Of a DNA stretch of 39,305 nt, positions 841-39,305 are shown one piece after another. Every line of letters begins with the position of its first letter. Within the stretch, counting starts at the first letter, position 1. The notes under the pieces were generated by a model. The model ran no database searches and was not told the origin of the DNA. It worked only from the letters and a program-made list of their open reading frames with translations. Origin of the DNA: Vampirovibrionia bacterium (lineage in GTDB: Bacteria > Cyanobacteriota > Vampirovibrionia > LMEP-6097); NCBI GenBank assembly GCA_049314535.1, contig JBMOEX010000003.1, positions 1-39,305 of the forward strand, in the 5' to 3' direction. A program made the position numbers and the translations under genes.

Positions 841-2936
841 AACACTGACGCTGCAAGCGTCACAGCCACATCTTCTATCTCTGGAATATGGGTACCCGGG
901 AAAGCCGTTTTGGTAGCAGAGTCCACCATAATACTACAGTAAGGACAAGCCACACTAACTTTATCTGGCTTATGCTCATTTAATTCCTCGAAACGCATTA
1001 CGTTAATATGACTACCAGGCATTTCGTACCAAATCTGAGCACCACCACCACCACAGCAAGTGCTTTTCTCCCTTTCATTAACAATGCTCTTCAACTGCAA
1101 GCCAGGTATACTCTCAAGAATAAATCTAGGAGGATTAAACACACGATTATATCTACCTAAATAGCAAGGATCGTGATAAGTAACGGAGATGTCAATTGAA
1201 TTCTTCGGTATTAAGCGAGATTCTTGAATTAATTTAGCTAGAATCTCAGTATGGTGATAGATTTCGACATCTTCTAGACCAAATTCTGTATACTCATTCT
1301 TAAAAGTATTATAGACATGCGGACACTGAGTAATGATCTTCTTAACCCCGAAGGCTTTAAAAATTTCAATATTCTCCATGACTATTTCTTGAAACATGGC
1401 TTCATCACCAGCTCTACGAGCGATATCTCCAGAACTCTTTTCCTCATTACCTAAAATAGCGAAACTAAGTCCAGCAGCCTCAAACAACCTTGCATTAGCT
1501 TTAGATACCTCGATATTACGAGTATCATAGGAGCCAGGACTACCTACCCAGTATAAGTATTCAAACTCTGCTTCCGTACGGCTTAAGACTTTAAGCTCCA
1601 TATCATATTCAGACTTAAGAGTATCTACCCACTTCTCTCTATCACTAGGAGCCAGTCCCCAAGGATTAGATTTAGTGCGCACATTTTTAAGTGTAGACTG
1701 TAAATTAGCTGGAGCTTGATTCATCGCCAGCAAGCCACGTCTCATATCAATGATAGTATCCACATGCTCAATTAAGACTGGACACTCTTCTACACAGGCG
1801 TTACAAGAAGTACATGACCAGAGTACGTCTGGATTAATAAATTCATACAAACTCGGAGAGTGTTCTTCATGCTCAGAAGATTTATTACTAAAACCACTAA
1901 CATGGCTTTGAGATAATTTTTTTATATCCAAGAAAAGATGTTTCGGTGAAAGTGGTTTATCAGTATTTTGAGCTGGGCAGACAACATGACAGCGCCCACA
2001 AGCCGTACAAGCTTCACTATCTAAAAGGGTTTTCCATGAAAAATCTTTATACTCAAAAACACCAGCATTAAAATCCTCTTCATTAATTTCTAAGCCCTTT
2101 TCCTCAGCTTCAAGCATATCTGAAAGCTTAAATGGAGTATAAAGCTGTCCCCTAGCTCTCTTTGAATGAAAGAACATAGATAAAGGCGCCATGAAAATAT
2201 GAATAAACTTAGAATATGGTATTAAAGCGATAAAAGCACAAGTTAGCAGAGCATGAGTCCACCAAAGAGTCACATGAGCCCCTCTTAAGTCAGTATCAGT
2301 CATAAATTGAAAAACCTGAGCTAGTGCATTACCAATAAAAGCATAGGACTCGTCTGCTGGAGTAGCAGCGATTCTCAGACCCTCTACCATAAAACCCGTT
2401 ACCGCTAAACTCAATAGAAATACTGGCTGAATCCAATCTCTCTGAGTATTATCAAGTTTTTTACTAGTAAAAAGATAACGACGCAGAGCAAATATCGTGA
2501 TACCAAGAAATAAGAATAATCCCCCAAGCTCGGCTGCAAAGCTAACTAATTTATAAAAGCTGCCTTGAAAAAAATACACCGGTGAATGATCCTGGAAACC
2601 TACTATATTCGTAACGATCCATAGTGTCATAAAGCCAAGAAACACACCAGCATGAGCAAGACCAGGAGTCTTTTTCTGAGAGGTTTTCTTATGCAAGAAA
2701 GCATATGTAAAAACATAAACTAGTCTATTCCAAACATCACTAAAGCGATTTTCTCCTTTCGGGAATTTACCAGCAGTAATAATCAGTATTTTCTTATAAA
2801 CACCATGAATAAGAATTCCTGTAGAAACAAGGATTAAAAAATAAAATAAAATTCTCGCAAAAGGTGCATCAATATTCCACCAGAGCTGGCGGGTTTCTAA
2901 GATAACAGCATTTGGAACTATAAGTGCAGATTCCAT
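837..2936 (-). CDS. Membrane-bound Fe-S oxidoreductase (FadF/HdrD/GlpC-like): NarI-like transmembrane region, 2x[4Fe-4S] dicluster, two CCG domains
   Basis: Motifs CTACGRCHVVCP, CTSCNACVEECP, TYHDPCYLGR, CCGGGG and ACPYC, plus several N-terminal transmembrane helices. Start placed at ATG 2936 to avoid overlap with metH; the ORF track gives 2966. Confidence 0.85.
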   Translation of the reverse strand: MESALIVPNAVILETRQLWWNIDAPFARILFYFLILVSTGILIHGVYKKILIITAGKFPKGENRFSDVWNRLVYVFTYAFLHKKTSQKKTPGLAHAGVFLGFMTLWIVTNIVGFQDHSPVYFFQGSFYKLVSFAAELGGLFLFLGITIFALRRYLFTSKKLDNTQRDWIQPVFLLSLAVTGFMVEGLRIAATPADESYAFIGNALAQVFQFMTDTDLRGAHVTLWWTHALLTCAFIALIPYSKFIHIFMAPLSMFFHSKRARGQLYTPFKLSDMLEAEEKGLEINEEDFNAGVFEYKDFSWKTLLDSEACTACGRCHVVCPAQNTDKPLSPKHLFLDIKKLSQSHVSGFSNKSSEHEEHSPSLYEFINPDVLWSCTSCNACVEECPVLIEHVDTIIDMRRGLLAMNQAPANLQSTLKNVRTKSNPWGLAPSDREKWVDTLKSEYDMELKVLSRTEAEFEYLYWVGSPGSYDTRNIEVSKANARLFEAAGLSFAILGNEEKSSGDIARRAGDEAMFQEIVMENIEIFKAFGVKKIITQCPHVYNTFKNEYTEFGLEDVEIYHHTEILAKLIQESRLIPKNSIDISVTYHDPCYLGRYNRVFNPPRFILESIPGLQLKSIVNEREKSTCCGGGGAQIWYEMPGSHINVMRFEELNEHKPDKVSVACPYCSIMVDSATKTAFPGTHIPEIEDVAVTLAASVF

Positions 2937-2960
2937 TAAACTATAATATATCCTAGAAAT
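2937..2960. promoter_or_regulatory. Putative back-to-back -10 elements in a 24-bp divergent gap
   Basis: Plus strand: TATAAT at 2942-47 and TATCCT at 2949-54, 6 nt before the metH ATG. Minus strand: TATTAT 6 nt before ATG 2936. Confidence 0.4.
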
Positions 2961-5900
2961 ATGCACTTGTCATTAAAGCCAAAACCTAAATTTCTTGAAA
3001 TACTGGCCCAAAAAGTTATTGTCTATGATGGTGCGATGGGGACTAATCTCTTTAATTACAGTCTGACAGCAGATGATTACGGCGGAGCAGCTTTTGAAGG
3101 CTGCCCTGAAATGCTAAATAAAACTAAACCTGAAATTATTCAAGAAATTCATCGTAATTTTTTCAGCGCTGGAGCTGATATTGTTGAGACTAATAGCTTC
3201 GGCTCTAGTAGACTCGTTCTTGGTGAATACGATATCAGTGAAGAAAGTTATGAAATCAGCAAACTTGCAGCTAGATTAGCAAGAGAGGTGGCTGATGAAT
3301 TTACTATCAAAGAACCAGAAAAACCTAGATTTGTAGCTGGCTCTATTGGACCAGGAACTAAACTCGCAACTTTAGGTAATGTTCAATTCGATGAACTTAA
3401 AAACTCCTACTTAGATCAAGTCCGTGGACTAATTGACGGCGGCGTTGATGTTATTCTGATTGAAACCTGCCAAGACCCTCTACAGATAAAGGCCGTACTT
3501 GTAGCTTGCTATGAAATATTTTCTAAGATAGAAGAAGAGTTTAAAGATAAAACCGATGCAGAATTATTAGAAGCTTACCCAAGGGGAGAAATCACTCAGA
3601 TTCAAGATTTCGCAGACAGAGCAACTATTACAAAAAATCACATTCGAACTAGAACTGGCTTATCAAAGAGATTTAGACTTCCACTGCAAGTGCAAATCAC
3701 GATAGAACAAACTGGCACGATGCTAGTCGGTACAGATTTAAATGCCGCACTTACGACCATAGCAGCTTACCCGATAGATATATTCGGGATGAACTGCGCT
3801 ACTGGACCAAAAGAAATGCAGGAACATATTCAGTATTTAAAAGATAACTGCCCAGTAAAAATCAGCTGCTTACCAAATGCTGGTATCCCCGAAAACGTCT
3901 GTGGCCACGCTCATTTCCCATTAGGACCAGATGAATTCACTAGCTATCTTTCTAAATTTATTACTGAATATCAGGTAAACATAGTAGGTGGCTGCTGTGG
4001 TACTAGTTATCAGCATATTAAACAGTTAGCTGATGCCGTAAAAGACTTATCAGCACCACTAAATGATACTAATACTAAAACCCAGGAAGTAAGAAATTCT
4101 CTTTCTTCACTATATTCCGCAATTAATATGGACTTAGATACTAAGCCTATAATAGTCGGAGAAAGAACTAACGCTAATGGCAGTAAGCTTTTCAAAGACT
4201 TACTTGCAAAAGAAGACTATGACGCAATTATAGACTTAGCTAAAGAACAAGTGGAAGAAGGAGCTCAAATTTTAGATCTCTGTGCAGCTTACGTCGGGCG
4301 GAATGAAATACGAGACATGAAGGAAATACTCTTCAAGCTCAATACCGCAATCAGCATACCAATAATGGTAGATAGCACTGAGGCAGATGTTTTAGAAGAA
4401 TCACTTAAATTAATCTCAGGGAAAGCAGTAGTAAACTCAGTCAACCTCGAAGATGGCGAGCATAGAGTTGAACTTATAGCTAAGCTCTGCAATAGATACG
4501 GTGCCGCATTAGTAGTACTCACCATCGATGAAAGTGGTATGGCGAAAACCGCCGAGAAGAAGCTGGAAGTCGCTGAGCGACTATATGATTTACTAGTAAA
4601 TCAACATGGCATGAATGCTAATGACATTATCTTTGATACTCTAACTTTCACTCTCGGCTCTGGGGATGAGGAATTTAGAAAAGCTGGTATTGAAACCATC
4701 GAAGCGATTCGCTTAGTAAAAGAAAAGATGCCTGGAGTAAAGAGCATACTTGGTGTTAGTAATATTTCATTCGGCTTAGATCCTAAATTAAGAACAGCCT
4801 TAAACTCTGTATTCATGCATGAAGCCACTAAAGCTGGTTTAGATATGGCTATCGTCAATAACAAAAAAATCATCCCTCTGCATAAAATAGAAAATCGACT
4901 CAAAGAACTATGCCTAGATTTAATCTACGATAGAAGAATTTTTAAAGATAATGGCGAATGCAGCTTTGATCCACTTATGGAGTTACTCGCCTTAGTCGAA
5001 GATATTAAGTTAGATGATAATGCCAAAACCAATCCCTATGAGGGTTTAAGCGTAGAACAAATACTCTCTCAAAGAATTATAGATGGTAATAAAACTAATA
5101 TCGATAAAGATTTAGATCTAGCAAGAGAAAAGGGACACAAGCCCTTAGACATTATCAATCAATTTCTCATGGATGGTATGAAGATAGTCGGTGAAAGGTT
5201 CGGGGCAGGTGAAATGCAATTACCTTTCGTACTACAGTCTGCTACGACGATGAAGGCAGCAGTATCTCACCTAGAACAGTTTATGGATAAGATTTCAGCT
5301 AATACTCACAAAGGCTCTCTAGTATTAGCTACTGTAAAAGGTGACGTTCATGACATCGGTAAAAACCTAGTCGATATCATACTTTCAAACAACGGTTATA
5401 AAGTTTATAACTTAGGTATAAAACAGCCGATAGAAGAAATCATTAAAGCCATAGAAGAACACAAGCCAGACCTACTCGCACTTTCAGGCTTACTCGTTAA
5501 ATCAACTTTAATAATGAAGCAGAACCTAGAAATTCTAAATGATAGAGGAATAGACCTTCCTGTTATATTAGGCGGGGCAGCTCTTACTAGGCGCTTCGTA
5601 GAACAAGACTGTGCAAATATCTACAAAGGCACTGTCTTTTATGGCTATGATGCCTTTACTGATTTAGATATCATGGAAAGGCTCAGCAGTAAAACCTCAC
5701 TTGATGAGATTAAAAAAGAATTTTATAAAACTAAACCAAGTGCAGAGAATACTAACAGTGCTTACCAAGAGGTAGGAGACTCTGATGAGGACAGCTACGC
5801 ACCATTATTAAGTTACACTGAAAATTTATCCTCAGTCCCAGCTTTAAAGAATGATGCAGTGCCTAAAATCCCCTTTTATGGAGATAAAATCATAGACTCT

Positions 5901-6674
5901 ACAGACATAGATCTTGATGAAATGTGGAGTTATTTAAACTTAGATGCAATGATAATCGGTCAATGGCGTATGGGGAAAGGGAAACGCTCCGACGAAGAGT
6001 ATAAAATATTCTTAGATACTGAAGTCTACCCAGTACTCGAAAGATTAAAAGTAGAAACCAGAAAAAATCCTTGGTTTAAACCTCAAATCATCTATGGTTA
6101 CTACTACTGTAAAATAGATGACACAAACCCAAATCAGCTCAATATTTACTCCGAAGATAAAACTCAAGTCATAGACTCCTTCATCTTTCCAAGACAAAAT
6201 AAGGATGATTATCTCTGCCTAAGTGATTATTTTCGCCTAGAAGATAAAAGCTCTTTCAACATCGTTCCTTTCCAGCTAGTTACCATAGGAGTTTCAGCAG
6301 CAGAATTCGTAAATAAACTTTACCAAGCTGGAGAATTTTCAGAATACCTCTATTACTACGGGCTAGCGACAGAGAGTACTGAAGCACTTGCAGAATATGC
6401 TCATGCTCGTATTAGAAAAGAATTAGGTTTTAGTGCAGAAGATGACAAAGATACGAAAAAATTACTACGCGGCTCTTATCATGGCATGCGTTTTAGCTTT
6501 GGCTATCCTGCCTGCCCTCGACTAGAAGACCAACTGAAGTTATTTGAACTATTTAAGCCAGATAGAATCGGCATGAAATTATCTGAAGAATGGCAAATTC
6601 ACCCAGAACATAGTACATCTGCGATAGTTATTCATCATCCTGCCGCAAAATACTATAATGTAAAAATTAACTAA
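2961..6674 (+). CDS. metH: Cobalamin-dependent methionine synthase
   Basis: Motifs DGAMGT, GMNCATGP, GGCCGT, pterin domain VGERTNANGS, B12-binding KGDVHDIGKNLV...SGLL and activation domain RFSFGYPACP. Confidence 0.97.
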   Translation: MHLSLKPKPKFLEILAQKVIVYDGAMGTNLFNYSLTADDYGGAAFEGCPEMLNKTKPEIIQEIHRNFFSAGADIVETNSFGSSRLVLGEYDISEESYEISKLAARLAREVADEFTIKEPEKPRFVAGSIGPGTKLATLGNVQFDELKNSYLDQVRGLIDGGVDVILIETCQDPLQIKAVLVACYEIFSKIEEEFKDKTDAELLEAYPRGEITQIQDFADRATITKNHIRTRTGLSKRFRLPLQVQITIEQTGTMLVGTDLNAALTTIAAYPIDIFGMNCATGPKEMQEHIQYLKDNCPVKISCLPNAGIPENVCGHAHFPLGPDEFTSYLSKFITEYQVNIVGGCCGTSYQHIKQLADAVKDLSAPLNDTNTKTQEVRNSLSSLYSAINMDLDTKPIIVGERTNANGSKLFKDLLAKEDYDAIIDLAKEQVEEGAQILDLCAAYVGRNEIRDMKEILFKLNTAISIPIMVDSTEADVLEESLKLISGKAVVNSVNLEDGEHRVELIAKLCNRYGAALVVLTIDESGMAKTAEKKLEVAERLYDLLVNQHGMNANDIIFDTLTFTLGSGDEEFRKAGIETIEAIRLVKEKMPGVKSILGVSNISFGLDPKLRTALNSVFMHEATKAGLDMAIVNNKKIIPLHKIENRLKELCLDLIYDRRIFKDNGECSFDPLMELLALVEDIKLDDNAKTNPYEGLSVEQILSQRIIDGNKTNIDKDLDLAREKGHKPLDIINQFLMDGMKIVGERFGAGEMQLPFVLQSATTMKAAVSHLEQFMDKISANTHKGSLVLATVKGDVHDIGKNLVDIILSNNGYKVYNLGIKQPIEEIIKAIEEHKPDLLALSGLLVKSTLIMKQNLEILNDRGIDLPVILGGAALTRRFVEQDCANIYKGTVFYGYDAFTDLDIMERLSSKTSLDEIKKEFYKTKPSAENTNSAYQEVGDSDEDSYAPLLSYTENLSSVPALKNDAVPKIPFYGDKIIDSTDIDLDEMWSYLNLDAMIIGQWRMGKGKRSDEEYKIFLDTEVYPVLERLKVETRKNPWFKPQIIYGYYYCKIDDTNPNQLNIYSEDKTQVIDSFIFPRQNKDDYLCLSDYFRLEDKSSFNIVPFQLVTIGVSAAEFVNKLYQAGEFSEYLYYYGLATESTEALAEYAHARIRKELGFSAEDDKDTKKLLRGSYHGMRFSFGYPACPRLEDQLKLFELFKPDRIGMKLSEEWQIHPEHSTSAIVIHHPAAKYYNVKIN

Positions 6675-6682
6675 ATTAAACA

Positions 6683-7468
6683 ATGAAAAATGATTTTTTA
6701 TCAAGCCTACTTAATATCATCAAAGCCTTCTTCGTTGGAATAGCTTATGGATTTTATGATTTAATTCCAGTCAAAAAAACACCACGAAATGAGCCTATAG
6801 AGCTGCATGACAGTAGCTGGAAAAAATATTATAAAGTGCCAGAATGGAGATACTTTATAGTACGAGAAATAACCGCTCAAATAGTTATAGTATTAGTTTT
6901 ACTAGTCATCGTAAGAACGACTATTGGTGAATTCAGATACATACCAAGCGAAAGCATGTTACCGACCTTAAAAATCGGCGATAAACTTTTCGTAGAAAAA
7001 ATAAGCAGACTTTTCAGAAAAGAATATCAGCGTGGAGATATTATTATTTTCTTTCCACCAGCTTCAGCAAGTGAAGGCCACGAAAGTATATTAAAAGATC
7101 CAGTTAGCTTATTAATTCGCCTAACAGGTTTACCATTTCTACCTCAGCCAGAGGCTTACATTAAAAGGCTTATCGGTTTACCTGGAGATAAAGTTGAAGT
7201 AATAAAAGGCGATGGTATATACATTAACGATAAAAAACTTTTAGAACCTTACTATGAAGGTAGTCCTGAATTTATTGCCGCCTATGATTACGGAGCAGTC
7301 ACGGTTCCAGCCAATAATTACCTGGTTTTTGGTGATAATCGTAACTTTAGCTATGACAGCCATTACTGGGGCTTCCTTCCGAAAGATAGGGTTATAGGCA
7401 GAGCTGCTTTTTTAATTTATAGAAGTCTTGATCAAAAACCACATTTTTTTGATGCCCCAATGTTATAA
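6683..7468 (+). CDS. lepB: Signal peptidase I
   Basis: Motifs IPSESMLPTL (catalytic Ser), YIKRLIGLPGD (catalytic Lys) and GDNRNFSYDSHYWG, preceded by a transmembrane helix. Confidence 0.95.
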   Translation: MKNDFLSSLLNIIKAFFVGIAYGFYDLIPVKKTPRNEPIELHDSSWKKYYKVPEWRYFIVREITAQIVIVLVLLVIVRTTIGEFRYIPSESMLPTLKIGDKLFVEKISRLFRKEYQRGDIIIFFPPASASEGHESILKDPVSLLIRLTGLPFLPQPEAYIKRLIGLPGDKVEVIKGDGIYINDKKLLEPYYEGSPEFIAAYDYGAVTVPANNYLVFGDNRNFSYDSHYWGFLPKDRVIGRAAFLIYRSLDQKPHFFDAPML

Positions 7469-7478
7469 ATTAAACTGA

Positions 7479-9167
7479 ATGCTCAATTTCCAGCTTTTTC
7501 TAATTCTATTAACGGCACTTCTAGTTTTCTCATTTGGAGTAGCTTCTGTGCCTATTGCTGGAGTAGATGAAGGTAGATTTACTCAGGCCTCTCTTAATAT
7601 GCTTATTAGTGGCGACTGGTTCATTCCACAAGTCGATGGTATTTTAAGGCTAGAAAAACCCATACTATTTTACTGGGAACAGGCTGTTTCATTTTTAATC
7701 TTCGGTACTACTGAATTTGCTGCTCGCTTACCCTCGGTGCTATCTGCTACAGGTTTAGTTGCGTTAGCTTATTTCATGGGTGGCATACAAGGCACACCTT
7801 TAATCGCAGGGTTAATCTGCTTAAGTACCTTATTCATAAACTTCTTTGCGAAAGTAGCTATGATTGATATGAGTCTATGCTTATTAATCTCTGCGACACT
7901 GAGTTTTTTCTTTCTATCTTATTTCTTTAAAACTAAAACTAATAATATTTTCAATAGGCAAAACTCCGATACTAGAATATATTTTTACCTAGCTAGCTTT
8001 AGTGCCTCTCTAGGCTTCCTCTGTAAGGGTCCTATAGCCTTAGCCTTGCCTAGTATAATCATATTCATCTTTTTATTAAAAGAAAAAGAACTAATCATAT
8101 TTTTTGCTCAAAAAAAATATGATTCATTAATTTGTATTGGAATGTTTCTCTTAATAAATATTCCTTGGTATCTTCTTGCCCATATAAAAACTCATGGTGA
8201 ATTTACTAAAAGCTTTTTTCTCGGAGATAATCTAGGACGTTTTCTAGAAACCACCAGTAATCATGGTGGAGCGATTTGGTTCTACATACCCGTAATTCTT
8301 GTCGGATTTTTCCCTTGGTCATTCTTCTTGGTACAAGCATTATTAAACGATCAAAACTCAAGCAAGGTATCTAGGATTAATATTATTGACAATACCAATA
8401 CCTTAAGAAGGTTTAACTTAATCTGGATTGCCGTGACTTTTATTTTCTTTAGCCTTTCTCAAACTAAATTAATTACCTATATTTTACCGATTTCACTGCC
8501 TCTAATTTTAACCATAGCCAAATATTGGTCAATGAAAATGAATGCTGGACGAGGTTTTCAAAATAGAAATTATGATATTTTAGGTGGTTTTCTGGCTTTA
8601 TTTATCACTGTTCCAATCTGCTTATTAATTATTTTAGATAAATTAAGCAACTCCTTAAATGCTCAATTAGTCGGAGAATTACAGTTTTTCCTAGTAATCA
8701 TAGGAATATTTTTCTCCTGCACGCTGATTATCGCAATGACTTCAGTTAAAACTAATCTCAAATTATCTTTTGGGCTAATTCTTATTTTCTCGCTCTGTCT
8801 ATATTTATTTTCTATGGAATTAATAGCTAAACCACTAATAAACAACTTAGATGGTGGTATTAAAAGCTTTTGCACCGAAATCTATGCCCCCGCAAAAGAA
8901 CATGCAAAAAAGCATAAAAGAAAAATAGCAAAGCTTGCTAGCTATAAATTAAATAGAGCCAGCATCGGTTTTTACTGCAAAGATACTGTAAATAACTTCA
9001 ATGATATAAACTCTTTAAATAAATTCTTGGCTTCACCAGAGACATTTCAGAGACCTGTTTATTTACTAGTTAGAAATGATGAGTTGCAAAATATTACAAA
9101 TCAAATAATCAGAGTACGTACGATAATTAAAAAAACGGATAAGCTATCGCTGCTTAGAATTAGCTGA
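7479..9167 (+). CDS. ArnT/PMT-family (GT-C) membrane glycosyltransferase
   Basis: Motifs DEGRF, EKPILFYW, FAARLPS, LCKGP, WFYIP...FFPWS and KLITYILP, with many transmembrane helices. Confidence 0.88.
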   Translation: MLNFQLFLILLTALLVFSFGVASVPIAGVDEGRFTQASLNMLISGDWFIPQVDGILRLEKPILFYWEQAVSFLIFGTTEFAARLPSVLSATGLVALAYFMGGIQGTPLIAGLICLSTLFINFFAKVAMIDMSLCLLISATLSFFFLSYFFKTKTNNIFNRQNSDTRIYFYLASFSASLGFLCKGPIALALPSIIIFIFLLKEKELIIFFAQKKYDSLICIGMFLLINIPWYLLAHIKTHGEFTKSFFLGDNLGRFLETTSNHGGAIWFYIPVILVGFFPWSFFLVQALLNDQNSSKVSRINIIDNTNTLRRFNLIWIAVTFIFFSLSQTKLITYILPISLPLILTIAKYWSMKMNAGRGFQNRNYDILGGFLALFITVPICLLIILDKLSNSLNAQLVGELQFFLVIIGIFFSCTLIIAMTSVKTNLKLSFGLILIFSLCLYLFSMELIAKPLINNLDGGIKSFCTEIYAPAKEHAKKHKRKIAKLASYKLNRASIGFYCKDTVNNFNDINSLNKFLASPETFQRPVYLLVRNDELQNITNQIIRVRTIIKKTDKLSLLRIS

Positions 9168-9204
9168 AAAAATAAAGCAATCACGGGTTCTGCGGTACTC
9201 TAAT

Positions 9205-12200
9205 CTAAAGAGTAAGTAGCTGAGGATCTTGCATAATTCTCTCAACAACGTAAGGACTCTTTGACAGTGCAAATAAAAAGCGCCACAATTTATTACTCAC
9301 TGGGAAATTTTCAGCTTGATCAAGATTATTTAATAAAATCAAAGCAACTTCTTTTAGGCTTTGCCCAGCAGACTTTTCCAATATTTTACTTACCGTTTCA
9401 TCGCCTAGCATTTTGACCAAGTTACCTAATTCACCATCTAAATTTGCAGTTTCCAATTTCTGCTTCAATTGTGAAATTTTCCGCAAAGCTGGCTGAACTA
9501 CCAATGGGTTAATATCCATAGTTTTAGCAATAGTAAATTGTTGTACCGCAGAGGCTTGAACAAATTTACTTAATAATGTCAAAGAAATATTTTCATTCTG
9601 CATTAGATCATCTATACTCGCGAACTTAGATACAGAAGCCAATAATTTAAGATCTTGTGACGTTATCGAATTAATAATTTTCCAAAATGATTTATCTTGT
9701 AATAAAGCTTTAAGCTCTGGTGGCAAACTCTGATTCATTTCTTGAGCTAAACCTAAGTCTATAAGAGTGATTTCATAATTACCTTTATCGTCTTTATTAA
9801 TGAAGATATTACCGTCGTGAGGATCTACGTGAATAAATTTATCAGCAGAATAACTGAAAAATTTAGAAATTTCTTCCTCAAGAAAAGCCACTTCTCGCTC
9901 CGCCTCATCACGACTAGCAGCCCGCCCAACAGCTTCTTTAATATTTTTAAAAGAATCCCCAGGAGCACGAGTTTCTGCGATAATGACAGAGTTCGAGTAT
10001 TTACTGCGAACTGAAGATACCGCAAATCTAACATTAGCAGCTGATCTGGATGCATTATATTCCTTAATGACTAAACTATTCATCTTAAGCATGTTTCCAG
10101 CTTCTATTTCTAAATCTGTCTCTTCTTTTATATCTGCAAAAATTCTTTCTGCGTACTTCGGAATATTTCTGATGCCGAATTCTTTTTCCAAAACTGGGGA
10201 AAGTGCTTCTATTAGATAATTAAAATCGTCTATCTCTGTATCTAAAGACTTATCAGCTCTCATCCTTCTTACTTTTAACACCATCTCATCTTCATTTATT
10301 TCAGTAAGATAGACACATTTAATACTCGCTGAACCACGTAGGTCTAACACCTTAATACTCTGAGCTTTCAACTCAGGACTAGTATCAATAGCCTGCATAA
10401 ACTCATCTAAAGGAATAGGAGCATTAGAATCTTTTAAATCAGATAATTTATCATATAAAACAGGAAACCTTGTTTTTATCTCCATTTGAGAAGATAATAT
10501 CTGAGCAAATTTAACTCCCACAGTACCATAAGCAGAAAGTAAAGTTTGAACCAGATCTTCAAATTCTAAGGTAGGAGTTTTCACAAGTTTATCTACCATT
10601 CTATTCATGATTTCGAGCTTCTTTACTTCATTTTGAGAATCAAAAACTTTATACAGTGCTTCTTTTACGACAACTTTAAGACTATTTCTATCAAGAACCT
10701 GTTTAGAAGTAGCTAATTCTGGTGTTAAAGAATCAGCAAATAAATCATCTAAAAGAGTGTTAAGCTCTTCTTTATTATTAAAGAAACCTTGTGCGCCAAC
10801 GCAAACCTCCTGAATAACAGCGTCTCTTAATGGCTTTATCTCTTTAAATAATTCTTTTATTTGATCTGGCTTAATAGAGAATTTAAGAAAATATTTTTTC
10901 CACTTGTCATCAAGTTCTGCACGAGAGCCAACTAACCACATCAGAGTGTCACGTATCCTGCCTAAGTCACCGTTTTCACTATCAATTAAAAAACTTAAAG
11001 CTGCTCCAGCTCCATGATGTGCAGAACGATCTTGCTTAAAAGCTTCAAACGAATTCTTTAAAAATAGATCTTCATGTTTTTTGTAATCCTCTATAAAAAA
11101 ACCAGTTGAGAGGAAAGCTTTTTCTAAGCGCAAATCCCTCTCTTGGCTGGGTTCTTTAAGGACATCTGTAATTATTTTAACTTTATCTTCCAAACTTAAA
11201 ACTCTAGGTAAATTAGCATCTAAATACATTTCCTTTAACTTAATCGCTTTAAATTCTGAATCATAAGAATTAATAATCTTTAACTGAGTCTCAGAGTCAA
11301 GTTCTTTAAATTCTTTATTCTGACTAAAAATCTTATTTAACACTACATCTCGATACTGACTGGGCTCACTCCAATTCTCTTCAAACCAATTAACTATTTC
11401 CGATAGAGACTTCTGCTTAAACTCATCTATATTTTTATTAAAGTACAGATAATAAGGATAATCTCTGTTTTGAATACTATTAGAAAATTTAACACGACCA
11501 AGTATTTTTTCAATTTCCGGAAATTTAAGCCCTGGAGTTTCCAGTATATCTGAGAGATTATTGGATTTTGATAAATCTATCTCTCTGCCTGAAGCCAAAA
11601 AATCTTTAAATCTTAAAAGACTGTTTTCATCAAAATTTTGAATATTTTGTTGCTTTAAATATACCTCAAATAAAGGTATCTCTAATTCACTAGGAACAAT
11701 ACTTAGCAAAAATTTAAAAGATTTATCATCATCCATAAAACTTCTTAATTTCGGTTCAACTGCATTTAAAAAAATTTCCCCGACTTCAGATGGTGACAAT
11801 GTCTCTCCATCCAAATTCATAAGCAGCGTTTGATCTTTTTGAAAAATATTACTGTTTGTAAAGGTGTTATAAGCCGCTGTCACTGAACTATAGATAGAAC
11901 ATAACGAAGATTCTTGAAGCCGTAGACCAGTTCCTTTTATAAGCCTATCTACTCCGAGTCCATCTAACTGCAGCTCAGGGCTAATGACTTGTTGAAAATA
12001 CATGTAAGTTAATAAATCTGAAGAATGATTATGCTTTTTAATTTCCCGTACAAGATTAGCAATCCCCTCTTCATTACTCGAATTAATATAAGCAAATAAA
12101 TTATTTAAAACTGAATCAGTATAAACAGGTTTGTTTATATTATCAAATAACGAAAGATTAGGTAAACTTGCCCCTATAGTTATATCAGATTCAACTAACA

Positions 12201-14124
12201 CTAATCCAGATTGACTTAAGGAATTATAATAAATACGACCTAAGCTGACATCTTTGTGTACATACTCGAATGGGACATGGATGAAATTGCTATTGCTATG
12301 ATCCACGACTCCTTTTGCATCTTGCATATCAAGCGTGTGACTTTCTAGGAGAATTAATAAACACTGGATTTTATCAGAATCTTCAGTTAAAAAAAGAGAA
12401 TCTAAAAGATCTTGCTTCGAGAATTTACTCGCAAATTCTGAATTAGCCAATCCACCAATTGAGTCCAATAAAGTCCCTGGATTCATTTTACAATCACTAA
12501 GAAAATAATTTCTCACAAGAGAAGATTCTCCTGCAAGAAAATTCAGACTAGTAATTTCCATATATTGAAAAATATTATTAATTAAATCAGGCTTATGTCG
12601 ATTAAGATCCAAGTATTTTTCAAATTCTGTAACAAAACCATCATTATTTTCAAATCTCAAAGAGAACTGACTAATCCGCATATCTAATTTATGAAAAATT
12701 TCTAAAACTTCATTAATTTCAGAATTTTTTATAGTGTATGGATTCTGCAGTAATGAACCTTCTCGACCATTAATCAATTCGTAAAGTTGAATAATTATTT
12801 CTTTTCTGATTATCGGATAATTACTCATTTTATATGGTATTAATTGTAAGTCAAGCTCCTGAAAATTAATTTCACTAGCGAGTTTAATCAGGGCATCTAA
12901 GGATAATTTCTGGGTCTCTGGATATGAAGGTTTCTCAAGCTGATTATCAGCTGCATATTTTGATACTTCCTCCAATGCTCCTTCATCCCAAAAATCCCGA
13001 ATCGTAGCCATTTTACATATTTCTAAAAAAGAATCAAAACCAGATATACTTTTATCTAAATCGCTTAAAGTTTCGTCTGTAAGAATTCTAGTTTTTTCCA
13101 ATAAATCAGAATAAAAGGTCTCTTTGTCCCCTTCACCATTATAATATGTTGGTATTTCTTCTAGCTGGGCTAATTTCTCTGATATAACTCGCGCTGCCAC
13201 TATGTAAGCTTCTTCTAGAGTTCTAGGAGCTCTTCTTTCAAGCTCATCAATATCATACTTAGCTTCTATAGCAATTTCTTTAGAAACCTCTGGTGCTAGG
13301 AGTTTATTACTAAGAGGAGATATATATTCTCCAGATTGACGTGAATATATTTGATTATATGTTTGCAATAGAAATAAATCTCTATCAGAGCCATGTGGAT
13401 GTGAATCTAAGAAAGGAATAGGTTTTAGATCACCAGCATCTCCAAATAAAGTACCAAAAATACCTAAAACTGCTTGAATATCATAACCCGCTTTATGCAT
13501 CAATTTCATAGCTGTTTGATCAGCAAAATCTTCCTCCCAAGTATTATTCTTATTTAAAACATTATCCTGAAGCTCAGCTTTTCTCTGTGCCGCACAAGCA
13601 TGCCCCATTTCATGTGAAATTAGAAACGCTATAACATCATGAACTTTATTAGTTGAAGTATATGCCTCTTCAACCCTTGCTAATAATCCAGTAGCGCTGT
13701 AAAGGCTATTTATTCCTTTTTCATAAAATGCATTAACCAGCTTTGTATCCAAGATATCAATACTGAAATGACCATCTTGGGTGATAGCTTCTTGAAGTAT
13801 TTTATTATCAGCATTTTGCGTTAATATCTCGCTCAAAACAGCTTTAACTAACTTAACTAAAGCAGGTCTTGCTTCATCAGTAATTATTATCCCCTCTAAA
13901 TTTTTACGAAAATCAGTACTTTTAAAATTATCTGACACGGGAGCAGCAGAAGCTACTTGAGTTAAAGGCTGTAACAAAGCCGCTCCAAAAAGAGCTGCTT
14001 GAGTTATAGAACCATTATTAGGATGACTAGCTGGAGAAACATTGTGTATTAGAATTGCATTATTTGCGGGCTTTAGAATATTTCCTTGGCTCTGTGTATA
14101 AACCTTCCGCGATATATTAGTCAA
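9205..14124 (-). CDS. Large protein: N-terminal M48 Zn-metallopeptidase domain, long helical linker, C-terminal ABC1/UbiB (AarF) atypical kinase domain
   Basis: M48 motifs: VNAF, ISHEMGH, EEDFAD...AGYD, FLDSHP. ABC1 motifs: GVKFAQILSS, GSASIKCVY, VLKVRR, EETDLEIEAGN, FIHVDPHDGNIF, LIDLGLA. TTG start is uncertain. Confidence 0.75.
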   Translation of the reverse strand: MTNISRKVYTQSQGNILKPANNAILIHNVSPASHPNNGSITQAALFGAALLQPLTQVASAAPVSDNFKSTDFRKNLEGIIITDEARPALVKLVKAVLSEILTQNADNKILQEAITQDGHFSIDILDTKLVNAFYEKGINSLYSATGLLARVEEAYTSTNKVHDVIAFLISHEMGHACAAQRKAELQDNVLNKNNTWEEDFADQTAMKLMHKAGYDIQAVLGIFGTLFGDAGDLKPIPFLDSHPHGSDRDLFLLQTYNQIYSRQSGEYISPLSNKLLAPEVSKEIAIEAKYDIDELERRAPRTLEEAYIVAARVISEKLAQLEEIPTYYNGEGDKETFYSDLLEKTRILTDETLSDLDKSISGFDSFLEICKMATIRDFWDEGALEEVSKYAADNQLEKPSYPETQKLSLDALIKLASEINFQELDLQLIPYKMSNYPIIRKEIIIQLYELINGREGSLLQNPYTIKNSEINEVLEIFHKLDMRISQFSLRFENNDGFVTEFEKYLDLNRHKPDLINNIFQYMEITSLNFLAGESSLVRNYFLSDCKMNPGTLLDSIGGLANSEFASKFSKQDLLDSLFLTEDSDKIQCLLILLESHTLDMQDAKGVVDHSNSNFIHVPFEYVHKDVSLGRIYYNSLSQSGLVLVESDITIGASLPNLSLFDNINKPVYTDSVLNNLFAYINSSNEEGIANLVREIKKHNHSSDLLTYMYFQQVISPELQLDGLGVDRLIKGTGLRLQESSLCSIYSSVTAAYNTFTNSNIFQKDQTLLMNLDGETLSPSEVGEIFLNAVEPKLRSFMDDDKSFKFLLSIVPSELEIPLFEVYLKQQNIQNFDENSLLRFKDFLASGREIDLSKSNNLSDILETPGLKFPEIEKILGRVKFSNSIQNRDYPYYLYFNKNIDEFKQKSLSEIVNWFEENWSEPSQYRDVVLNKIFSQNKEFKELDSETQLKIINSYDSEFKAIKLKEMYLDANLPRVLSLEDKVKIITDVLKEPSQERDLRLEKAFLSTGFFIEDYKKHEDLFLKNSFEAFKQDRSAHHGAGAALSFLIDSENGDLGRIRDTLMWLVGSRAELDDKWKKYFLKFSIKPDQIKELFKEIKPLRDAVIQEVCVGAQGFFNNKEELNTLLDDLFADSLTPELATSKQVLDRNSLKVVVKEALYKVFDSQNEVKKLEIMNRMVDKLVKTPTLEFEDLVQTLLSAYGTVGVKFAQILSSQMEIKTRFPVLYDKLSDLKDSNAPIPLDEFMQAIDTSPELKAQSIKVLDLRGSASIKCVYLTEINEDEMVLKVRRMRADKSLDTEIDDFNYLIEALSPVLEKEFGIRNIPKYAERIFADIKEETDLEIEAGNMLKMNSLVIKEYNASRSAANVRFAVSSVRSKYSNSVIIAETRAPGDSFKNIKEAVGRAASRDEAEREVAFLEEEISKFFSYSADKFIHVDPHDGNIFINKDDKGNYEITLIDLGLAQEMNQSLPPELKALLQDKSFWKIINSITSQDLKLLASVSKFASIDDLMQNENISLTLLSKFVQASAVQQFTIAKTMDINPLVVQPALRKISQLKQKLETANLDGELGNLVKMLGDETVSKILEKSAGQSLKEVALILLNNLDQAENFPVSNKLWRFLFALSKSPYVVERIMQDPQLLTL

Positions 14125-14192
14125 GATAAGTTTAAACCCTGACTATACAAAGTTATCTTGACTTGAAAATTTATAAGTAAAAAACTAAAACC

Positions 14193-14504
14193 TTACCACT
14201 TAATCGTCGCAAAAGAATCCATATCAATATTCATACGATTGCGATAAATAAGTAATAACAAAGATAAGCCAATAGCGACTTCAGCAGCAGCAATCGCCAT
14301 AACAAACAAACTGAATGCCTGACCTTTAACCGCTAAAGGATCTAAGAAATGAGCAAAGGCAACAAAGTTTATATTAACGGCATTCAGCATAATCTCAATA
14401 CTCATAAGAACCCTGAAAGCATTTCTAGAAATTAAAAGCCCAAAAAGACCGATAGAAAATAACAGTGCTGAAAACGTAAGATAGTGAACTAATGTAACTG
14501 TCAT
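14193..14504 (-). CDS. ndhE: NADH-quinone oxidoreductase subunit K (NdhE/NuoK)
   Basis: Motifs [23 protein letters not shown] and [10 protein letters not shown] in a 103-aa hydrophobic protein. Confidence 0.95.
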
Positions 14505-14507
14505 AAT

Positions 14508-15071
14508 TTATTTAATATCCTTTTTACTTAAGAGAATAGTACCAATAAGAACTATCAAGAGAAGAACAGAGATTAATTCAAAAGGCAAAATATATTTATT
14601 TAGCATTAAGAAACCAATCTGCGAGAGATACTTATCATCAACAAGCTGAACCAAAGATGACTGCCTTTCTGCACCAGTTAACTTCGCAATAGCCTGCCAA
14701 TCTTGAGAACGAATCACAAAGCTTAAAACCGCAAAAACAAGAGACGATATTAACAGTGCAAATGTAACTCTAGCTTTAGAAGAAAAAACAGATTCTTTAA
14801 TATTATGAGCCTCTTCCTTTAAAGAACAGAGCATAACCGCAAAAACTATTACTAAAACTATACCCACCGCATATATCAAGACTTGTGAAACCGCTACAAA
14901 GTTAGCGTTAAGAAGGAAATAAAGCCCCGCTATCCCGATAAAAGAACCGATTAAAGTAAAGCCAGCCCTCACTAAGTTAGGATTAAGTATCATACCCAAA
15001 GCACAAATTATAGAAATTGTGGCAAGAATATAAAAGGGCAAGGATGAAATAGTAGCTAGAAACTGCATCAA
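14508..15071 (-). CDS. ndhG: NADH-quinone oxidoreductase subunit J (NdhG/NuoJ)
   Basis: Motifs LNANFVAVSQVLIYAVGIVLVIVFAVML and YILPFELISVLLL; lies directly upstream of ndhE. Confidence 0.93.
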   Translation of the reverse strand: MMQFLATISSLPFYILATISIICALGMILNPNLVRAGFTLIGSFIGIAGLYFLLNANFVAVSQVLIYAVGIVLVIVFAVMLCSLKEEAHNIKESVFSSKARVTFALLISSLVFAVLSFVIRSQDWQAIAKLTGAERQSSLVQLVDDKYLSQIGFLMLNKYILPFELISVLLLIVLIGTILLSKKDIK

Positions 15072-20383: not shown

Positions 20384-20668
20384 TTAGCCTGCTCCACTCG
20401 CTAGTTTATTTGTTGCTTGAATATCTTTCTTATTCTCATCAATCTCCGACTTCCAGAATTGAGATTCGTTTCTCCAAAAACCAAGTAAAGACTTAGTCGT
20501 CGTAACCTCTGTCCTTAAAGCTGCCGCTGATATTCTTCCAGCATCTGTGTCAATAGCCAAAGCCTCTGACATCTGATTCTCTAAATCAGTAAGTATATCC
20601 TGATTTAATTCTACGAAAAACTCGCACTGTGCATGCCTGACCGATGGATTCACTGCATTTAAAGCCAT
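20384..20668 (-). CDS. Hypothetical small helical-hairpin protein, paralog of 19870..20346
   Basis: 94-aa ORF abutting the upstream gene, with GGAG in the SD position; shares motifs PxVR..Q, LE..MS and W..E...TNK.A with its neighbour. Confidence 0.75.
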   Translation of the reverse strand: MALNAVNPSVRHAQCEFFVELNQDILTDLENQMSEALAIDTDAGRISAAALRTEVTTTKSLLGFWRNESQFWKSEIDENKKDIQATNKLASGAG

Positions 20669-26464: not shown

Positions 26465-26853
26465 TGACAGCGACAGAAGAAAAGAAAAACAAAAAATTAA
26501 AATCCTTAGCATTAATTCTTAGATCGCTTGCCCCTGAATCACAAAGGGCTATTTACAAACAGCTTCCAGACGAATTAGTCAGAAGAATAACTCAGGTAAG
26601 CCTAGATATAGATAAAGAATTAACCAAAGAAGACTGGGAAATTTTCACTCACTCTTGGCCAGAATTTTCACATTTAATCAGTGGCGTAGTACAAGAAACC
26701 CAATATGAACACTGCGCAAAATTTAAAAATAAAGAAAGACCAAAAGTACAGGAGTACCTAGACTATAAAATGGGGAATAAAAAAGGGAGACCTAATTTAA
26801 GTAGTTCAATTACCCGAATAATCGATAACTTCATATCCCAAAATGCTAATTAA
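26464..26853 (+). CDS. fliG: FliG N-terminal-domain-only protein
   Basis: Occupies the fliG slot between fliF and fliH. KSLALILRSLAPESQRAIYKQLPDELVRRIT resembles FliG_N. Only 129 aa. Confidence 0.55.
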   Translation: MTATEEKKNKKLKSLALILRSLAPESQRAIYKQLPDELVRRITQVSLDIDKELTKEDWEIFTHSWPEFSHLISGVVQETQYEHCAKFKNKERPKVQEYLDYKMGNKKGRPNLSSSITRIIDNFISQNAN

Positions 26854-33203: not shown

Positions 33204-34115
33204 TTAAACAACAAATAAATCAGGACGATATTTTTTAGTCATTTTTAAAGCCTCTTCTATTCTCCAGAAAAGAATTTTTTTATGATCACCAGACTGTAAG
33301 ACCTCTGGAACAGTCTTTCCATAAAAATCTTTAGGGCGAGTATAATGTGGATACTCTAAAAGACGTAAAGCCAGAAAGCTTTCTAGAGATTTAACACCAT
33401 AGTCCAAAAGCAAATCCTGAAGGCGTTTCAGCTCAGCTTTAGTAAAATCATAATCCTTTAGATGAAAGAGCTCTTGAGCTGTGCTAAAGCTGTCAGCAGC
33501 ATGGCTTTCAGCAGAGCCTAAGACATTAGGCACTAAACGAGAAACAGCGTCTATAACTGCCATAGCAGCAAGCTCACCACCCGTTAAAATAAAATCCCCC
33601 AAAGAAATCACTTTAGTCGCTAAAGAATAAATCCTCTCATCGAAACCCTCATAGTGACCGCAAAGCATGATGATTTGTTTTTTCTGCGCGAGCTCTGAAA
33701 CGAGCTGCTGATTTAAGACTGCACCTCGTGGTGAAAAAATTATCACCTCAGGGGCGTGTAGCTGAACTCCAATTTCTGCGTTTTCGTCGTCCTCATGATC
33801 CTCATGTATTCGTGATACACTGCGGTCATTCGTCCTCCTCAGCCTTGAACTTGTTCGTTCAGCCACACGCCCCTCTGAGGCACTAGACGATATCACAGAT
33901 TCAAGACAGTCATAAAAAGGCTGCGGTGAAAGCAGCATCCCAGCACCGCCGCCATAAGGGGTATCATCCACTTTTTTATGTTTATTAAGAGAGAAGTCTC
34001 TAGGATTATGCACGAGAACCTCACAGACTCTAGATTTCTGGGCATTCGCCAAAATACTAGTATTACAGTAAGACTGAATTAATTCTGGAAATAGAGTCAG
34101 GACATCAAAGCGCAT
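33204..34115 (-). CDS. trmD: tRNA (guanine-37-N1)-methyltransferase, with two in-frame insertions
   Basis: Motifs VLTLFPE, VDDTPYGGGAGM, CGHYEGFDER, SLGDFILTGGE, LLEYPHYTRP and VPEVLQSGDH. Confidence 0.96.
   Translation of the reverse strand: MRFDVLTLFPELIQSYCNTSILANAQKSRVCEVLVHNPRDFSLNKHKKVDDTPYGGGAGMLLSPQPFYDCLESVISSSASEGRVAERTSSRLRRTNDRSVSRIHEDHEDDENAEIGVQLHAPEVIIFSPRGAVLNQQLVSELAQKKQIIMLCGHYEGFDERIYSLATKVISLGDFILTGGELAAMAVIDAVSRLVPNVLGSAESHAADSFSTAQELFHLKDYDFTKAELKRLQDLLLDYGVKSLESFLALRLLEYPHYTRPKDFYGKTVPEVLQSGDHKKILFWRIEEALKMTKKYRPDLFVV
33751..33873. mobile_element. 123-bp palindromic MITE/RPE-like element inserted in frame in trmD
   Basis: Terminal inverted repeat GGGGCGTGTAGCTGAAC / GTTCAGCCACACGCCCC (16 of 17 match), central TGTAT-N5-ATACA hairpin, GC-richer than its flanks, length divisible by 3. 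Confidence 0.8.

Positions 34116-38825: not shown

Positions 38826-39305
<480 letters not shown>

Follow-up and report, generated by a model that had tools for sequence, protein, structure and literature searches.

A rare family of giant proteins with an M48 metalloprotease domain and a UbiB/ABC1 domain in one chain

The stretch of DNA analysed here (the window: 39,305 nucleotides, positions 1 to 39,305 of contig JBMOEX010000003.1, assembly GCA_049314535.1, from a Vampirovibrionia bacterium) carries a long open reading frame (ORF) for a giant protein with an M48-type zinc metalloprotease domain near its N-terminus, a UbiB/ABC1 (COQ8-like) atypical kinase fold at its C-terminus, and a long helical region in between. 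The architecture is real and conserved and seems to be unstudied; it is a new architecture and subfamily made from two known kinds of enzyme. A literature search (titles and abstract openings of matching papers) found no account of an M48–UbiB fusion, in agreement with the initial annotation, made from the sequence alone, which had not recognised the architecture as described. Current annotations of such proteins as "hypothetical protein," "AarF/UbiB family protein," or "M48 family metalloprotease" each miss half of the protein. Judging from sequence and predicted structure, this is most likely a soluble, cytoplasmic protein with two enzymes. The best explanation we can offer, held tentatively, is that a UbiB-type nucleotide or lipid switch is coupled to an M48 protease in a rare conserved family.

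The ORF has 1639 codons, zero internal stops, and a TTG start that recurs in the congener G004. The initial annotation had placed both motif sets in this one uninterrupted frame, and its approximate ranges for them (13380-13860 for M48, 9740-10560 for ABC1) are correct; exact motif positions are given in Table 1. The source is a metagenome-assembled genome in 188 contigs, and some Logan contigs have loose ends within the ORF, yet an assembly artefact or a decaying gene, whether from two genes mis-joined or from a missed stop, is scarcely credible. Contigs from three DNA runs in two studies cover all 30 bins of positions 8900-14600 and tile the ORF with its frame kept. A divergent strain in run X3 has many substitutions, and its indels consist of two +1/-1 pairs (4-8 bases apart) and one +3, all of which preserve the reading frame. 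At least six other genomes have full-length ORFs (1517-1774 amino acids, aa) of this layout, and the catalytic motifs are conserved. The ORF carries no copy of the dispersed repeat of about 121 bases found in this genome, because a BLAST search of the ORF against its own genome gave just one 29-base match at chance level. Promoter-like sites around the gene are as numerous as in shuffled sequence. No RNA run was listed as containing the ORF, and one metatranscriptome from the same study yielded no contig on it, which weighs neither way. The runs that hold the gene are labelled as freshwater, lake, drinking-water, and lagoon metagenomes.

By Pfam alone the M48 assignment is marginal, because the Peptidase_M48 match (PF01435, 24.6 bits against a gathering cut-off of 20.3) is confined to residues 188-248 (profile positions 130-178). 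A genome-wide six-frame scan with PF01435 at E<=0.001 did not return the giant ORF, only a separate stand-alone M48 gene (224 aa, with a clear signal peptide), a result that speaks against the assignment. Relatives of the giant match PF01435 at 24-42 bits, on other stretches of the profile. A profile of nine full-length homologues matches the M48 peptidase 3c37_A at E 3.7e-8, and also BepA, with NAF, HExxH, the E..AD helix, and HP..R aligned residue for residue to both. The nine-sequence alignment shows no variation at N131, A132, H171, E172, G174, H175, E198, D199, D202, H242, P243, or R248. Of 29 full-length relatives that were aligned, 28 have HExxH itself (H171-E172-M-G-H175 in the giant), several of them without a Pfam M48 score; the 29th (2176 aa, genome G011) has HELVH at residue 203, overlooked by the alignment. 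In the profile alignment E198..D202 falls on the E..AD motif that 3c37 and BepA have, and E198 is the predicted third zinc ligand. AlphaFold, given a 29-sequence alignment, models residues 1-860 with a mean pLDDT of 70.5 and a confident domain at residues 67-271. Aligned with BepA (6sar_A), model residues 67-270 give Z 14.9 over 165 residues (rmsd 3.4); 3c37_B gives Z 13.7 over 171 residues, while other zincins reach Z 10.1 at most. On profile and model evidence the weak Pfam match thus marks a genuine M48 domain of the BepA/3C37-like type, and the motif set that had been read as apparently intact (NAF, HEMGH, EEDFAD, SHP) is borne out by profile, fold, and invariance.

The predicted domain shares with BepA/YfgC (PDB 6sar, 6ait) and the Geobacter M48 protein 3c37 its catalytic fold, with HExxH and a downstream Glu, but has about 25-30 residues fewer between the HExxH helix and the Glu helix. 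BepA, like the giant, has helical repeats behind the protease; the giant has about 900 helical residues where BepA has its TPR domain, and only the giant goes on to a UbiB domain. BepA is periplasmic. The M48 domain of the giant, unlike BepA, is probably cytoplasmic, because it comes without a signal peptide. No 19-residue window of the giant exceeds a Kyte-Doolittle value of 1.34, and pLDDT is below 50 across residues 1-70 in the model of residues 1-860; given that maximum and the disordered N-terminus, neither a signal peptide nor a membrane helix is seen in the giant. The N-terminus had been described as polar and lacking a clear Sec signal, and so it is. Identity in this tail drops to 5-17% in relatives that hold 34-47% identity in the M48 domain.

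At the other end of the chain, the ABC1 model PF03109 matches residues 1264-1468 with 62.8 bits (cut-off 22.9; 66.6 bits in the genome scan), so that both Pfam families named in the initial annotation exceed their gathering cut-offs. A model of residues 860-1639 (39-sequence alignment, pLDDT 85, pTM 0.80) has 12 Foldseek matches at E<=0.001, and all 12 are members of the UbiB family (COQ8A/ADCK3, Rv3197, MSMEG_1954), the best at E 4.8e-8. VIA-align places model residues 328-780 (protein 1187-1639) on residues 258-639 of ADCK3 (4ped_A) with Z 18.8 over 341 residues, followed by Rv3197 at Z 16.0; other kinases have Z 12.5 or less. Because the ADCK3 alignment spans residues 1187-1639, the helices beyond the Pfam match belong to the UbiB fold, which runs to the C-terminus. 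ABC1 proteins have a family-specific N-terminal lid with a KxGQ motif, and an Ala triad replaces their Gly-rich loop (PMC8956952). Judging from the truncated construct in the same paper, the ADCK3 258-639 alignment would include the lid. In the 39 sequences K1205 and Q1208 of the lid motif, E1341, D1434, and D1456 are invariant, and the catalytic K1284 and N1439 are at least 90% conserved. The lid motif reads K-F-A-Q in the window protein, with Ala for Gly, and K-x-G-Q in several relatives. The Ala triad position reads G-S-A-S in the window protein, A-A-A-S in P0010, P0012, and P0014 (the second type of giant in the genus) and in P0013 and P0031, and G-S-A-S or E-G-S-M in other relatives.

The full ABC1 motif set claimed at the outset therefore stands by Pfam, by predicted fold, and by the conserved lid Lys and Gln, catalytic Lys, HxDxHxGN, and DxG. 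What the giant has in common with UbiB, COQ8A (ADCK3), and ABC1K is these motifs and a predicted fold that extends over the whole crystallised ADCK3 domain. It differs from them in its identity of only about 14% to solved UbiB structures, its K-F-A-Q lid and G-S-A triad, the lack of a membrane helix, the family-specific helical domain of 300 residues in front, and the fused protease. The mycobacterial ABC1-like proteins Rv3197 and MSMEG_1954 share the UbiB-type fold (Foldseek E 6.8e-6 to 2.7e-7), but these are stand-alone proteins of about 400 aa with neither the protease nor the helical domain in front. NCBIfam UbiB equivalog models (TIGR01982/NF003404) match residues 1149-1465 at 53.3 bits against a cut-off of 487.55 and at 39.8 against 667. 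Because these scores fall so far under the cut-offs, the domain is of the UbiB family yet no orthologue of Escherichia coli UbiB.

The separator of about 900 residues, noted earlier as helical and unrecognised, proves to be just that, and falls into two parts. The scaffold at residues 272-879, judged within the 1-860 model, draws only weak matches to generic helical repeats (Foldseek E>=1.9e-3; VIA Z <=8.0, in the range common for helical models). The conserved domain that follows it, here called the pre-UbiB domain, packs in front of the UbiB fold in the model, and R925 and D926 are at least 90% conserved among the 39 sequences. It corresponds to positions 570-830 of a profile made from residues 270-1150 (the mid-region profile) and is the sole part matched by most of the distant relatives; it is the defining signature of the family. 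Look-alikes of this domain in the ESM Atlas scored 0.82-0.84 at best, the level of shuffled controls, and gave no lead. Regional ratios of nonsynonymous to synonymous substitution rates (dN/dS), computed against two congeners, are lowest in the pre-UbiB and UbiB domains and highest in the N-terminal tail (Table 1). The catalytic centres, intact by motif, are under purifying selection by these ratios.

The M48–helical–UbiB layout is rare. Searched against 1.84 billion representative proteins, the mid-region profile finds 31 cluster representatives at E<=0.001 (21 at <=1e-10, 12 at <=1e-30), so the architecture is not a common one, as it might have turned out to be. Among 26 of these representatives, Pfam finds M48 plus ABC1 in 10, ABC1 alone in nine, and neither in seven, but several proteins of the latter two groups are incomplete, or have the motifs even though Pfam gives them no score. 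The named relatives belong to Margulisbacteria, Saganbacteria, Elusimicrobia, and Omnitrophota. A word-based search yields nine related proteins with 95% to 31% identity, six of which match both Pfam families. Whole-protein matches at E<=1e-5 occur in 8 of 61 related genomes, including four of six congeners. A locus search with the full-length alignment returns 80 loci, of which two (L039 and L040) are family members and the others ordinary ABC1 genes. A 28%-identical homologue (1564 aa, M48 plus ABC1 by Pfam) lies on a 78.8-kb metagenome contig, alone on its strand among housekeeping genes (alanine racemase, PHP, DnaX, RecR).

The giant is the only ABC1 match in its own genome, which is 92% complete. 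An ABC1 match occurs in 9 of 29 other genomes of the host's family, in every case within a frame of 714-2176 aa and at 54-117 bits; the shortest of these frames end at contig ends, and three of these giants (1653, 1675, and 1517 aa) score for both M48 and ABC1. None of the 29 genomes has a canonical ABC1 protein of 500-660 aa. It is only in other families of the class that canonical ABC1 genes are seen, with frames of about 450-660 aa and scores of about 210-283 bits. In a tree of the UbiB domain, 39 giants stand apart from 60 ordinary ABC1 proteins from metagenome loci, with two label changes against a shuffled mean of 30.9; well-supported branches force only one change. This tree comes from a quick search and has many long branches, and 18 of the 78 ordinary loci (L041-L118) were omitted (no tblastn hit, frame outside 350-800 aa, or X). 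A single clade of giants is not rejected by the approximately unbiased (AU) test (p 0.341). A single, old fusion is favoured by the tree and by HExxH, which 28 of 29 full-length relatives, spread over several phyla, possess. A word-based search for stand-alone relatives among shorter proteins finds three for the M48 region and five for the UbiB region, all of them fragments or short forms of the giant family. The protease-free short forms are P0013 (869 aa, located in G025 two genes from nuoD, its start preceded by an in-frame stop) and P0027 (664 aa, on a 105.6-kb contig).

The genus also has a second type of giant, 37% identical to the first. It is represented by L017 (G005:C7, positions 2838-7931, 1697 aa, M48 plus ABC1), which has ftsW on one side and a gene for an S1 protein on the other. 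G006 has a fragment of the second type (C243:818-1096) in addition to a copy of the window type, while the genome of the window shows one copy only. A 5599-aa Omnitrophota protein, P0059, falls in the 90% cluster of P0037 (mid-region profile E 2.5e-05); it is annotated as a lipopolysaccharide (LPS) heptose kinase and has two HELAH motifs.

If the preferred reading of a coupled protease and switch is right, the UbiB module would act as an ATP-binding and ATP-hydrolysing switch, as is thought for COQ8, and would answer hydrophobic ligands, such as a prenyl-lipid or something like a quinone, where it meets a membrane or lipid surface. By way of the pre-UbiB domain and the helical arm, it would position or gate the M48 protease. 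The protease would cut client proteins held by the helical scaffold, much as BepA does with its TPR domain. The ATPase activity of COQ8 is stimulated by membranes and by phenolic quinone intermediates, and the TPR domain of BepA holds clients. A quinone context is offered by nuoJ and nuoK directly upstream of the giant, and by one UbiA-family prenyltransferase and five NuoL/M/N-type genes in the genome. A cellular rather than a mobile role is suggested by the giant's being the sole ABC1 match, by conserved synteny, by the confinement of ABC1 to giants in the host's family, and by the 28%-identical homologue among housekeeping genes.

The same two protein families meet at one site in the sister lineage, Cyanobacteria and plastids. 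In Synechocystis, three ABC1K proteins belong to the lipid-droplet proteome, and so does the M48 protease sll1280, which is set beside Arabidopsis PGM48 (PMC12223511). Over-accumulation of ABC1K6 leads to enrichment of PGM48 on plastoglobules (PMC8956952), PGM48 is co-expressed with ABC1K7 and ABC1K3 (bioRxiv 10.1101/2021.02.05.430006), and PGM48 is reported to promote senescence (PMC12587418). On these accounts, PGM48/sll1280 and ABC1K1/3/6/7 share plastoglobules and cyanobacterial lipid droplets, though as separate proteins of ordinary size, unlike the giant, to which they are likened by family only; the host of the giant differs in that no photosystem I was found in it. It is a speculative extension, and a rather doubtful one, that the giant is a "Rosetta stone," that is, that M48 and UbiB form one functional unit in which a lipid-sensing UbiB protein gates or targets the protease, also between PGM48/sll1280 and ABC1K.

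The UbiB/ABC1 family is ancient and widespread, and is tied to human disease as well as to the metabolism of quinones and prenyl-lipids. Its activity is debated, with protein kinase, lipid-activated ATPase, or something else under discussion; the active site lies under the KxGQ lid, and a lipid environment may be needed for activity (PMC8956952). A UbiB–protease fusion that several uncultured phyla have retained hints strongly at a partner activity, and offers a single chain on which any coupling could be measured. The hint at an M48–UbiB partnership is specific and testable because both families reside together on lipid droplets in Cyanobacteria and plastids. Were it true, the UbiB family would gain an output at the protein level that can be assayed in one polypeptide, and the partnership might extend to M48 proteases and UbiB-type proteins of mitochondria. 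We regard the finding as of moderate to high interest because it gives a handle on UbiB function.

Several points weigh against this coupled reading. The coupling between the two enzymes is purely conjectural. Fibrillin, a hallmark of the lipid droplets in question, was not found in the genome. The Ala triad typical of ABC1 reads G-S-A in the giant, and the NCBIfam equivalog score given above is far below its cut-off; the closest stand-alone M48 of the same genome is only 21% identical to the M48 domain of the giant. The dN/dS of the catalytic domains, 0.2-0.4, is higher than would be expected of a core housekeeping enzyme. An ABC1 giant was not found in 20 of the 29 genomes of the host's family, and the mid-region profile matched none of 400 other genomes sampled across the phylum; because the family is so patchy, the giant is dispensable. 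The gene neighbourhood is not conserved beyond the genus, and adjacency to the NDH-1 genes may be chance, although the short form in G025 also lies near such a gene, nuoD. Cysteine makes up 0.43% of the giant, half the 0.88% of the window's 32 other ORFs, a faint sign that would fit export.

The closest competitor to a coupled machine is that the chain holds two independent enzymes, UbiB serving quinone or prenyl-lipid homeostasis and M48 serving protein quality control, with the fusion merely co-localising or co-expressing them. This is possible, though fairly unlikely. It would fit the sole ABC1 match in the genome, two intact centres, the protease-free short forms P0013 and P0027, and the relaxed constraint on the linker. 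Against it stand the pre-UbiB domain, conserved and specific to the family, and the retention of the three-part layout in 28 of 29 full-length relatives, in several phyla and down to identities of about 15%, for which a functional reason is likely because such retention is hard to explain otherwise. The variable scaffold invites a different idea, namely a conflict or defence protein in which the scaffold senses a foreign or changing partner, UbiB is a nucleotide switch, and M48 is the effector, by analogy with immune ATPases that combine sensor, switch, and effector. The scaffold is 65% identical in P0004, whose catalytic domains are 94-96% identical, its dN/dS rises to 0.78, the distribution is patchy, and the genus has its second, 37%-identical type. 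This idea is nevertheless improbable. PADLOC-DB 2.0 returns 0 families for the window protein and P0012, and for P0011 one coiled-coil-like ZorA match only (20.8 bits, in a helical stretch); the sole immune-sensor fold match (Avs4) is at Foldseek rank 44 (E 1.6e-2) amid generic helical repeats; regional dN/dS values are below 1; and the locus is a syntenic housekeeping one, with no mobile-element gene (integrase, transposase) or defence gene adjacent to the giant.

Export of the protein was the suggestion of the initial annotation, which took it for an effector or signalling protein and possibly a substrate of the window's type III system. The genes of that system (for FliE, FliF, and a FliH-like protein) are flagellar, which leaves the substrate claim unsupported; the effector part of the label is unsupported too, given also the housekeeping synteny and the sole ABC1 match, while the broader label of a signalling protein may hold. 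A secreted or injected effector, sent out through the type III machinery of the flagellum or by some other non-classical route, is quite improbable, more so than a defence role. Its N-terminal 66 residues are disordered, polar, and fast-evolving, and the protein is without a Sec signal and low in cysteine, as an effector might be. A second type-III-like export gate is conceivable because the genome has two divergent, full-length FlhA/SctV (FHIPEP) paralogues, 37% identical (C49:5555-7681, plus strand; C139:604-2706, minus strand), but both sit among unrelated genes, outside flagellar or secretion clusters. Flagellin has six matches above cut-off elsewhere in the genome. No injectisome-type cluster and no match to VirB4 (type IV secretion) were found in this 92%-complete genome, and its two secretins belong to other systems, one of the STN/FecR_C type and one, Tad-like, beside a T2SSE ATPase and a SAF-domain gene. 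No chaperone-like gene adjoins the giant (its neighbours are nuoK and a PMT_2 gene), and an ATP-dependent UbiB fold would be unexpected outside the cell.

Table 1. Positions of the giant gene, its predicted domains and motifs, and other features in the window
Feature	Position	Strand	Remarks
Whole giant ORF	9205..14124	-	Stop codon 9205-9207; TTG start 14122-14124
Residues 1-66, polar, disordered, fast-evolving tail	13927..14124	-	pLDDT 23-35; dN/dS ~1.2 against G004
Residues 67-271, predicted soluble M48 zinc-metalloprotease domain	13312..13926	-	dN/dS 0.34-0.42
HEMGH motif	13600-13614	-	
SHP..R motif	13381-13401	-	
Residues 272-879, variable, all-helical, solenoid-like scaffold (model)	11488..13311	-	pLDDT mostly 55-90; dN/dS 0.41-0.78
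Residues 880-1186, conserved helical pre-UbiB domain (model)	10567..11487	-	Y-R-D 924-926, W1063; pLDDT 81-94; dN/dS 0.20-0.22
Residues 1187-1639, predicted complete UbiB/ABC1 (COQ8-like) atypical kinase fold	9208..10566	-	dN/dS 0.20-0.24
K-F-A-Q motif	10501-10512	-	
H-V-D-P-H-D-G-N motif	9808-9831	-	
D-L-G motif	9751-9759	-	
nuoK	14193-14504	-	Pfam Oxidored_q2; 68-base gap to the start of the giant
nuoJ	14508-15071	-	Pfam Oxidored_q3
Second dispersed repeat (~190 bases)	20448-20635		Intergenic
ORF of 129 aa	26464-26853	+	No Pfam match
FliH-like ORF	26843-29770	+	975 aa; FliH domain at residues 162-289
TrmD gene	33204-34115	-	
Copy of the ~121-base dispersed repeat	33750-33872		Inside the TrmD gene
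16S rRNA gene, 3' third	38826-39305	-	Rfam SSU_rRNA_bacteria positions 1055-1533; clipped by the window end

The genes nuoJ and nuoK lie directly upstream of the giant on the same strand, and in the same order in the congener G004. Downstream are genes for a PMT_2 glycosyltransferase, a signal peptidase, MetH, and an HdrD-like protein, and synteny on both flanks is kept in the congeners G004 and G006. In a genome of another genus (G027) the giant is again convergent with MetH. Neighbours differ among the lineages examined, with S1/FtsW in G005 and TP_methylase in G020 and G008, and no conserved operon partner was found.

By an indirect test the host is a non-photosynthetic, Melainabacteria-like member of Cyanobacteriota, because photosystem I (PF00223) is present in 40 of 120 other genomes of the phylum and none was found in the host. 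Photosystem I was likewise not found in 40 of 40 sampled genomes of a family (f6) in the same class, and among the named controls it matched Synechococcus elongatus only. One congener (L003/L004) is deposited as "MAG: Proteobacteria bacterium," contrary to the photosystem I test, and this is likely a mislabel.

Some further features of the window may be recorded. Between FliF and the FliH-like ORF lies a 129-aa ORF, where a FliG-sized gene is expected. After its FliH domain, the FliH-like ORF continues with 12 tandem 39-base units (13 residues, EEIPLELEAVTEL-like). The domain is also followed by a block of about 500 bases that is duplicated and by a tail of extreme acidity. At the end of the window is a partial 16S rRNA gene, which could serve for direct taxonomic placement. 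The dispersed repeat of about 121 bases has dozens of copies, 85-98% identical, on other contigs; its copy in the gene for the tRNA (m1G37) methyltransferase TrmD accompanies a Pfam TrmD match split into three. The second dispersed repeat has copies with 72-79% identity on C68 and C113, two on each.

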